Under the pieces are notes generated by a model. It was not told where the DNA came from. It saw only the letters and a list, made by a program, of their open reading frames with translations, and ran no database searches. Shown piece after piece: positions 25,065-25,476 of a stretch of DNA of 64,000 nt. Made by a program: the position numbers and the translations under genes. The stretch lies in the NCBI RefSeq assembly GCF_057098645.1, contig NZ_CM169472.1. The stretch is one strand, 5' to 3'. How positions within the stretch are numbered: position 1 is the stretch's first letter; every line of letters begins with the position of its first letter.

Positions 25065-25113
25065 AAGTAACTCTTTTTGTTGAGATTATCCGATTAAGGT
25101 GAAGCAGAAAAAG

Positions 25114-25125
25114 CACGCTACCGCC
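25114..25125 (-). promoter_or_regulatory. ops (operon polarity suppressor) element in the waaQ leader, RfaH recruitment site
   Basis: Minus-strand sequence GGCGGTAGCGTG (plus strand cacgctaccgcc) upstream of waaQ, matching the ops consensus as I recall it. Confidence 0.7.
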
Positions 25126-25476
25126 CCAGGCTCAACAGCTACCTGAATACTGATACCGCACTGATATTGACGCGCTAGTGTATCACTTCTTTCGCGGCAA
25201 TCCGACCCGAATGATTTTTAAGCACATTGTTGATTTTCAATAAAGAAATCAATCAAATATAATCATTAGCAACCATATTCTTTCACTGTTGCTCTGCGAT
25301 TCCTTCCTGCACGTACAGCAGAAATCAATGAATCGCATAAAAATACAAAAAAAGTATAGATGTTCAGCAAGAATTGGCGGGTAAATTGCTATTTAAGTCA
25401 AAAACGGGAAAAGTAATGGTAAAGCCACAGCTAAATACATAGAATCCCCAGCACATCCATAAGTCAGCTATTTACT

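Follow-up and report, generated by a model that had tools for sequence, protein, structure and literature searches.

A JUMPstart/ops Element in the waaQ Leader of an Escherichia coli LPS-Core Operon: A Probable Loading Site for RfaH

Organization of the waaQ Locus

The DNA considered here (referred to below as the window) is a stretch of 64,000 nt of the Escherichia coli chromosome. A 751-bp query covering 24900..25650, i.e., the intergenic region discussed below and the adjoining gene ends, is 100% identical to strain 720632, and at least 80% of this query is matched in 5418 of the 5426 complete E. coli genomes. The genes on the two sides of the region of interest, for which RefSeq uses the names rfaQ and waaA, are transcribed divergently, and the former is the first gene of a long operon for the lipopolysaccharide (LPS) core:

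15920..24009, minus strand: waaG, waaP, waaO, a GT8 gene, waaY, a second GT8 gene, a GT2 gene (327 aa), and a 417-aa ligase-like ORF (from ORFs, family matches, and the annotation of a related strain)
24006..25064, minus strand: waaQ (rfaQ), heptosyltransferase III, 352 aa from GTG (NCBIfam NF007742, 713.8 bits, residues 1-351 on profile positions 1-351)
25065..25476, between the two genes: waaQ/waaA divergent intergenic region, 412 bp, 38.3% GC (from the ORF list, the annotation of the identical strain, and the composition)
25477..26754, plus strand: waaA (kdtA), Kdo transferase, divergent, 425 aa (NCBIfam NF004385, 906 bits)

The operon covers about 9.2 kb, from waaQ to the 417-aa ORF that ends at 15920, and its GC content, which is 47-48% in waaQ, waaG, and waaP, drops to 33-38% over the six genes that follow (15920-22079). 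Low-GC distal genes in an operon of this length are the kind of target that RfaH protects. The 417-aa ORF is called ligase-like by its position only; it has no NCBIfam match, and the ligase gene of strain 720632 does not align with the window. By BLAST, 18366..37650 of the window is 99.2% identical to that strain, and the outer-core genes give no alignment. The distal gene order resembles that of the R1 core type and differs from that of strain 720632, which has a GT25 gene there. A terminator-like hairpin followed by a U-run (TTACGGTATTGACCGTAA CTTTTTATTT) lies toward the 5′ end of the second GT8 gene, at 19226-19243 on the minus strand; such terminator-like sites are about as numerous in the operon region as expected by chance.

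At some distance from this locus, the Rfam scan places an ALIL pseudoknot, which is the frameshift element of an IS3-family insertion sequence, at 45228-45344 (minus strand), tRNA-Sec (selC) at 55156-55246 (plus strand), and isrK with a C4-antisense target at 63819-63909 (plus strand), about 8.6 kb beyond selC. The isrK and C4-antisense matches suggest a phage-like island inserted beside selC. The rfaH gene itself is absent from the window.

The Intergenic Region and the Boundaries of the waaQ Leader

The first-pass annotation had described a 412-bp divergent control region between waaQ and waaA, and the ORF list together with the annotation gives exactly this length for 25065..25476. The same region had also been called a long AT-rich waaQ leader. 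The composition is indeed AT-rich over the 412 bp as a whole, as compared to 49.8% GC for the window, but the transcribed leader would comprise only about 106 nt with 43% GC. On the start site assigned below, it is wrong to call the entire region a leader, the AT-rich part being apparently untranscribed promoter and upstream DNA, about 300 bp in length, that is shared with waaA. The elements of the promoter and of the leader outside the ops motif are the following:

25177..25185, minus strand: inferred extended −10 of waaQ, TGATACACT, with TG at −15/−14 and TACACT at −12..−7; conserved
25170, minus strand: inferred +1 of the waaQ mRNA and of a RirA-like RNA, homologous to the K-12 rirA 5′ end at 3808238
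25065..25170, minus strand: actual waaQ 5′ leader, 106 nt, 43.4% GC (start site by homology, end by the conserved GTG)
25107..25113, minus strand: C-U5-C tract right after ops (U6 in K-12)
25071..25075, minus strand: AAGAG, Shine-Dalgarno-like, 6 nt before GTG; AAGAG-N6-GTG is invariant in a 20-genus alignment

The extended −10 TGATACACT sits 7 nt upstream of the position that is homologous to the K-12 rirA/waaQ 5′ end, and the pattern TGnTACA(C/A)T is kept in all 20 genera aligned. TGATACACT is thus the putative waaQ promoter. A consensus scan of the intergenic region returned two promoter-like sites, which is at chance level and neither of which corresponds to the conserved TGnTACACT, and called no terminator.

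The conserved blocks of the spacer in the 20-genus alignment are the waaA-proximal ~85 nt, a T-rich block around 25326..25363, ATTCGnnTCGGATTG at 25212..25198, the extended −10, JUMPstart/ops, and AAGAG-N6-GTG. The third of these, ATTCGnnTCGGATTG / ATTCGGGTCGGATTG on the minus strand, covers −29 to −43 of the inferred start site and is strongly conserved, its TCGG being almost invariant. As a sigma-70 −35 element, however, ATTCGGGTCGGATTG is poor, and it could be a regulator site. The ~85 nt beside the waaA start (25394-25476) are nearly invariant in the 20 genera and read ...TAAATACATAGAATCCCCAGCACATCCATAAGTCAGCTATTTACT-ATG on the waaA strand. This block is probably the waaA promoter and/or 5′ UTR.

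The alignment also bears on the start codon of waaQ, for which the curated K-12 annotation has an ATG located 36 nt inside the ORF (25028 in the window, giving 344 aa), whereas RefSeq PGAP has the GTG at 25064. At the waaQ start, AAGAG-N6-GTG is conserved across the Enterobacterales, including Providencia, the AAGAG motif being found in Arsenophonus and Moellerella as well. The profiles of heptosyltransferases I and III start at residue 7 of the GTG product, which precedes the ATG. On these grounds, the GTG appears to be the correct start, and the K-12 waaQ annotation looks 12 codons short.

The JUMPstart/ops Element

Two nested elements of the leader are central to the interpretation:

25114..25152, minus strand: JUMPstart, 39 nt, with the inner hairpin CAGGU...GCCUG (Rfam RF01707), 59% GC
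25114..25125, minus strand: ops GGCGGTAGCGTG, on the non-template strand, +46..+57

A sequence search for the exact 12-mer GGCGGTAGCGTG, which represents the 12-nt ops GGCGGTAGnnTG with its invariant core, finds a single copy in the window, at 25125→25114 on the minus strand. Since waaQ is encoded on the minus strand, the 12-mer is in the waaQ-sense orientation, on the non-template strand, and it lies in the transcribed but untranslated leader of a long operon, the transcription start being assigned by homology only. The distance from the 3′ end of ops to the GTG start at 25064 is 49 nt, in good agreement with the earlier claim of an ops element on the sense strand some 50 nt before waaQ.

A comparison with the JUMPstart/ops consensus had been suggested as a check, and it yields a full match. 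The Rfam scan identifies JUMPstart RNA RF01707 at 25152→25114 with 55.2 bits, as compared to a gathering score of 35, and E = 5e-11. The match spans model positions 1-38 of 38 with ops as its 3′ end, is reproduced by the scan of the whole window, and is the sole Rfam match in the waaQ/waaA neighborhood. The pairs 31-47, 32-46, 33-45, and 34-44 of the inner stem are never broken in 46 distinct leaders, the first of them being AU in 31, GU in 13, and GC in 2 across the species. All sequence-level defining features of the JUMPstart/ops family are present.

Other operons controlled by RfaH, such as rfb/O-antigen, the kps and cps capsule operons, hlyCABD, and F tra, have in common with waaQ the 39-nt consensus, the inner hairpin, and a 3′-terminal ops in the untranslated leader of a long operon. 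The waaQ version differs from these in three respects: its leader is short and places ops about 50 nt before the start codon, a U-tract directly follows ops, and an extra upstream CAGUGCG box is able to pair with the ops RNA. In the K-12 rfb element, for example, ops is followed by GCATTAAT, with no U-tract.

Comparison with the K-12 Locus and RirA

The annotation of K-12 MG1655 has an ncRNA, rirA (b4760, 73 nt, 3808238→3808166), on the homologous stretch. Its counterpart in the window is:

25099..25170, minus strand: RirA counterpart, 72 nt (73 nt in K-12), 67 of 73 aligned positions identical, 91.8% (pairwise alignment to b4760)

The window thus contains a RirA-homologous sequence that shares, by homology, the 5′ end of waaQ and that includes both JUMPstart and ops. 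All 39 nt of JUMPstart/ops are identical to those of K-12; the five substitutions of the RirA region are all upstream or downstream of JUMPstart, and the window has one U fewer after ops. According to reviews from the group that described RirA, this RNA shares the waaQ start site and contains ops and JUMPstart, the ops/JUMPstart in the 5′ UTR makes the waaQ and rfb operons dependent on RfaH, in K-12 as well as in other E. coli, and overexpressed RirA mimics an rfaH deletion in a manner that requires its ops sequence (PMC6358824, PMC8745692, PMC5736990).

The identities between the window and K-12 for the different parts of the locus are:

waaA, first 600 nt: 98.7%
JUMPstart: 100%
RirA region: 91.8%
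waaQ coding DNA: 70.6%
waaG coding DNA: 79.7%

An element that is preserved to this extent (91.8% over the RirA region and 100% over JUMPstart) in an allele with a waaQ identity of 70.6% is likely to be under strong purifying selection. Among the matching records, which come from 5424 of 5426 E. coli genomes, none falls below 90% identity over the RirA region. With the 751-bp query, 4433 E. coli records match the window at 99% or more, while 953 match at 80-90%, K-12 being among the latter.

The waaQ leader of K-12 resembles that of the window in the divergent waaA, the extended −10 promoter, and the ops at +46..+57. The window, however, has the other E. coli waa allele, which is the commoner of the two and in which the gene order is R1-like and not that of the K-12 core, and the central ~170 bp of its intergenic region are unrelated to K-12. 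In this central part (25215-25387), two very different E. coli alleles exist, which are identical from the waaA side to about 25387 and diverge from there. As the divergence continues from ~25387 through waaQ and waaG, the waa core-type recombination boundary seems to lie inside the intergenic region. The element is already known: it is the JUMPstart/ops of K-12 rfaQ/waaQ, together with rirA, found here on the commoner E. coli waa allele.

Conservation in the Enterobacterales and the Possibility of a Chance Motif

One genome per species was scanned with the WaaQ protein, which resulted in 72 Enterobacterales loci. In 46 of these, the 8-mer of ops precedes the beginning of the WaaQ match by 37-52 nt, and in 45 of the 46 ops-bearing leaders the 12-mer is identical to that of the window, the exception (L047) ending in A. 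A divergent waaA upstream of waaQ, with a spacer of 319-412 bp, was found in 43 species loci.

The loci in which ops upstream of waaQ is lost, degraded, or moved are L009, L071, L017, L035, and L038-L059. No ops was found upstream of waaQ in the Providencia, Moellerella, and Arsenophonus loci, which retain the promoter or the start-codon context, and the Siccibacter waaQ is preceded by unrelated GC-rich sequence instead of ops. The motif is degraded in Kluyvera intermedia (AGCGGTAGCGTA) and in K. cryocrescens. In Brenneria, it is found about 1450 nt upstream of waaQ, a distance suggesting that waaQ is not the first gene there. The loss or degradation of ops in some of the related species implies that RfaH dependence is not universal.

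Two further occurrences of the 8-mer were considered and discarded. The first, GGCGGTAG at 36015-36022 on the minus strand of the window, reads GGCGGTAGCGAC, has neither a JUMPstart nor T11/G12, and is antisense within yicG; it is considered to be due to chance. The second lies ~525 nt upstream of waaQ in Salmonella and in two Kluyvera, inside waaA in the antisense direction, and is probably a coding coincidence. The corresponding waaA site of the window reads TACCGCC, within the codons for F-Y-R-H.

These data can be used to evaluate whether the motif upstream of waaQ might be a chance occurrence without function. The bare 8-mer core would be compatible with this, as it is at chance level in the window (2 found vs 1.34 expected). 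For the exact 12-mer, on the other hand, the expectation is 0.01 per window, and it appeared in 1 of 100 shuffles. The full JUMPstart match has the very low E value given above, 46 species have the motif in practically unchanged form and at a set distance from the start codon, and the copy in the window is identical to a characterized element. The conservation and the family match already refute a chance origin, the probability of which is practically negligible.

Predicted Polymerase Pausing and RfaH Loading

Data from K-12 can be transferred to the window to assign the position at which RNA polymerase would pause:

25115..25116, minus strand: predicted pause / RNA 3′ end at ops U11 (25115) and G10 (25116), +56/+55 (K-12 Term-seq and NET-seq, by sequence identity)

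Two independent in vivo data sets from K-12 indicate a strong pause at ops. The pause seen by NET-seq is named rfaQ56U (PMC11077087). With the transcription start at 25170, ops U11 is +56, which agrees with this name. The dominant 3′ ends in K-12 Term-seq are at 3808184 and 3808183, which correspond to ops G10 and U11 according to the printed flanking sequence, with mean reads of 62,669 and 116,952, respectively; the Rho score at these ends is 1.04, and they were scored as not Rho-dependent (PMC7815308). The element being 100% identical, the pause position is predicted for the window from these data. RirA is annotated with its 3′ end at +73, near which the Term-seq tables searched have no 3′ end. 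The abundant +55/+56 species may consist of trimmed RirA, of a 56-mer that has been released, or of nascent transcripts still held by the paused polymerase.

While the polymerase is paused, a hairpin of two pairs (C3:G8 and G4:A7) forms in the non-template ops DNA, with T6 flipped out and G5 exposed to the N-terminal domain of RfaH (PMC6391919). Binding to ops relieves the auto-inhibition of RfaH, and the C-terminal domain refolds to a β-barrel; the bound protein suppresses backtracking and hairpin-stabilized pausing, excludes NusG and thereby blocks Rho-dependent termination, and contacts ribosomal protein S10, for which a role in ribosome recruitment has been proposed (PMC6391919). It has also been reported that rfaQ/waaG is a known RfaH target covered by H-NS in a uropathogenic strain (PMC9765446), which fits the AT-rich distal genes of the present operon.

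On the basis of the above, we propose the following scenario for the window. Transcription would start at ~25170 from the extended −10 promoter, and RNA polymerase would pause 56 nt further on, at ops U11 (25115). In the paused complex, the non-template ops hairpin would expose G5/T6, to which RfaH would bind, open, and clamp onto the polymerase. The modified polymerase would resist pausing, exclude NusG and Rho, and could recruit a ribosome through S10, so that transcription would continue over the whole ~9.2-kb operon and cover its AT-rich distal genes as well. The short RNA RirA of K-12, which reportedly antagonizes RfaH, would correspond to this same stretch at the 5′ end.

We consider it very likely (with a probability of roughly 0.93) that the element is the JUMPstart/ops of the E. 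coli waaQ (rfaQ) LPS-core operon and serves in cis as the loading site for the NusG paralogue RfaH; no feature of the sequence speaks against this. The homology to the characterized K-12 locus lends support to the earlier proposal that ops recruits RfaH for antitermination through this long LPS operon, and the operon of the window strain would by analogy be RfaH-dependent. The arrangement is reminiscent of lambda N/nut, of boxA in rrn operons, and of other NusG paralogues (e.g., LoaP), in all of which a signal in the 5′ leader makes RNA polymerase resistant to termination over a long operon. However, the nut and boxA signals are read as RNA and need Nus factors, whereas ops is read as single-stranded non-template DNA in the paused complex by a single fold-switching protein.

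A Possible Role in Trans

As the homologous 73 nt of K-12 are annotated as rirA, we have also considered whether the main role of the stretch could be exerted in trans. Such a role would be in line with the effect of overexpressed RirA, which mimics an rfaH deletion and needs ops for it (PMC6358824, PMC8745692, PMC5736990), with the abundant short RNAs that end in the leader according to Term-seq (PMC7815308), and with the 91.8% conservation of the region between divergent alleles. However, the reported phenotypes are from overexpression, and the function of ops at the DNA level is by itself sufficient to explain the conserved core. Furthermore, the Term-seq ends at +55/+56 differ from the 3′ end annotated at 73 nt, and they could be those of transcripts still being made by a paused polymerase. 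We therefore find it doubtful, although well worth considering, that the main role is in trans; moreover, such a role is compatible with the cis-acting loading of RfaH and does not constitute an alternative to it.

The Predicted Outer Hairpin of the Leader RNA

The calculated minimum free energy (MFE) structure of the RirA counterpart is one long imperfect hairpin with an energy of −19.3 kcal/mol (z = −0.66); the corresponding values for K-12 RirA are −22.5 kcal/mol and z = −2.3. In this fold, the ops RNA and the next C and U pair with 25162..25149, outside the inner stem, and the C-U5 stretch follows directly. This long hairpin would begin a few nt after the transcription start. Its outer arm is:

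25149..25162, minus strand: 5′ arm AGUGCG-G-UAUC-A-GU, predicted partner of the ops RNA (MFE fold); extends the JUMPstart hairpin

This fold raises the question of whether the leader works as an attenuator, in which the ops RNA, being the 3′ arm of a long hairpin followed by U5-6, would act as a checkpoint similar to an intrinsic terminator. Polymerases without RfaH would then stop and release a short RirA-like RNA, while RfaH-loaded polymerases would read through, which would add to the known mechanism. Besides the single-hairpin folds of the window and of K-12, the comparison of the leaders provides some arguments for this proposal. Over the 46 distinct leaders, 92.3% of the cells of the outer stem are paired, as compared to 29-51% in slid controls. 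The 5′ arm variants GUGCG, GCACG, GCGCG, and ACACG can all still pair with the invariant ops, and AACACG co-occurs with a U that replaces the C after ops. In 37 of the 46 leaders ops is followed by a U-rich tail, and these keep 5.7 of 6 outer pairs, vs 3.7 of 6 in the rest, although few independent lineages are represented among those that lack the U-tract. Also, the intrinsic-terminator score given by the Term-seq authors for K-12 is 6.28, values of at least 3 being suggestive (PMC7815308).

The same Term-seq data, however, place the K-12 3′ ends at +55/+56, a position within the proposed stem that precedes the U-tract by 3-8 nt, and list no K-12 3′ end at +73 or in the U-tract, where an intrinsic terminator would have it (PMC7815308). 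In addition, the z-score of the window fold is only −0.66, a simple terminator scan is empty, and the effect of RfaH at intrinsic terminators is only about 2-fold (PMC6391919). RNAalifold, applied to the 46 distinct leaders, did not recover the outer helix and gave only the inner JUMPstart stem and a small invariant hairpin inside ops; it thus provides no independent support for the outer stem, the support for which is accordingly moderate. It should be mentioned here that, with ops being invariant, two-sided covariation is almost impossible to observe. Taken together, an attenuator in the leader appears unlikely.

A more general form of this idea is that in the waaQ leaders of the Enterobacteriaceae ops is constrained twice, once as the DNA that loads RfaH and once as the 3′ arm of an RNA checkpoint composed of the hairpin and the U-tract. 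Through termination or a second pause, this checkpoint would discard polymerases that lack RfaH and generate RirA-like RNAs. We regard this as quite unlikely and put it forward as a speculative proposal. RirA is considered in the published view to arise by processing, and a literature search for JUMPstart in connection with a stem-loop found no paper.

Biological Implications

The RfaH/ops system is textbook material and a virulence determinant. To the known K-12 element, the present analysis adds corrected boundaries for the leader, evidence in favor of the GTG start of waaQ rather than the shorter gene annotated in K-12, and a cross-species view of the parts of the 412-bp region that are under constraint. 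The RfaH-loading JUMPstart/ops element explains how full-length transcripts of a long and partly AT-rich LPS-core operon are obtained in E. coli, and hence how the core of the outer membrane is made complete.
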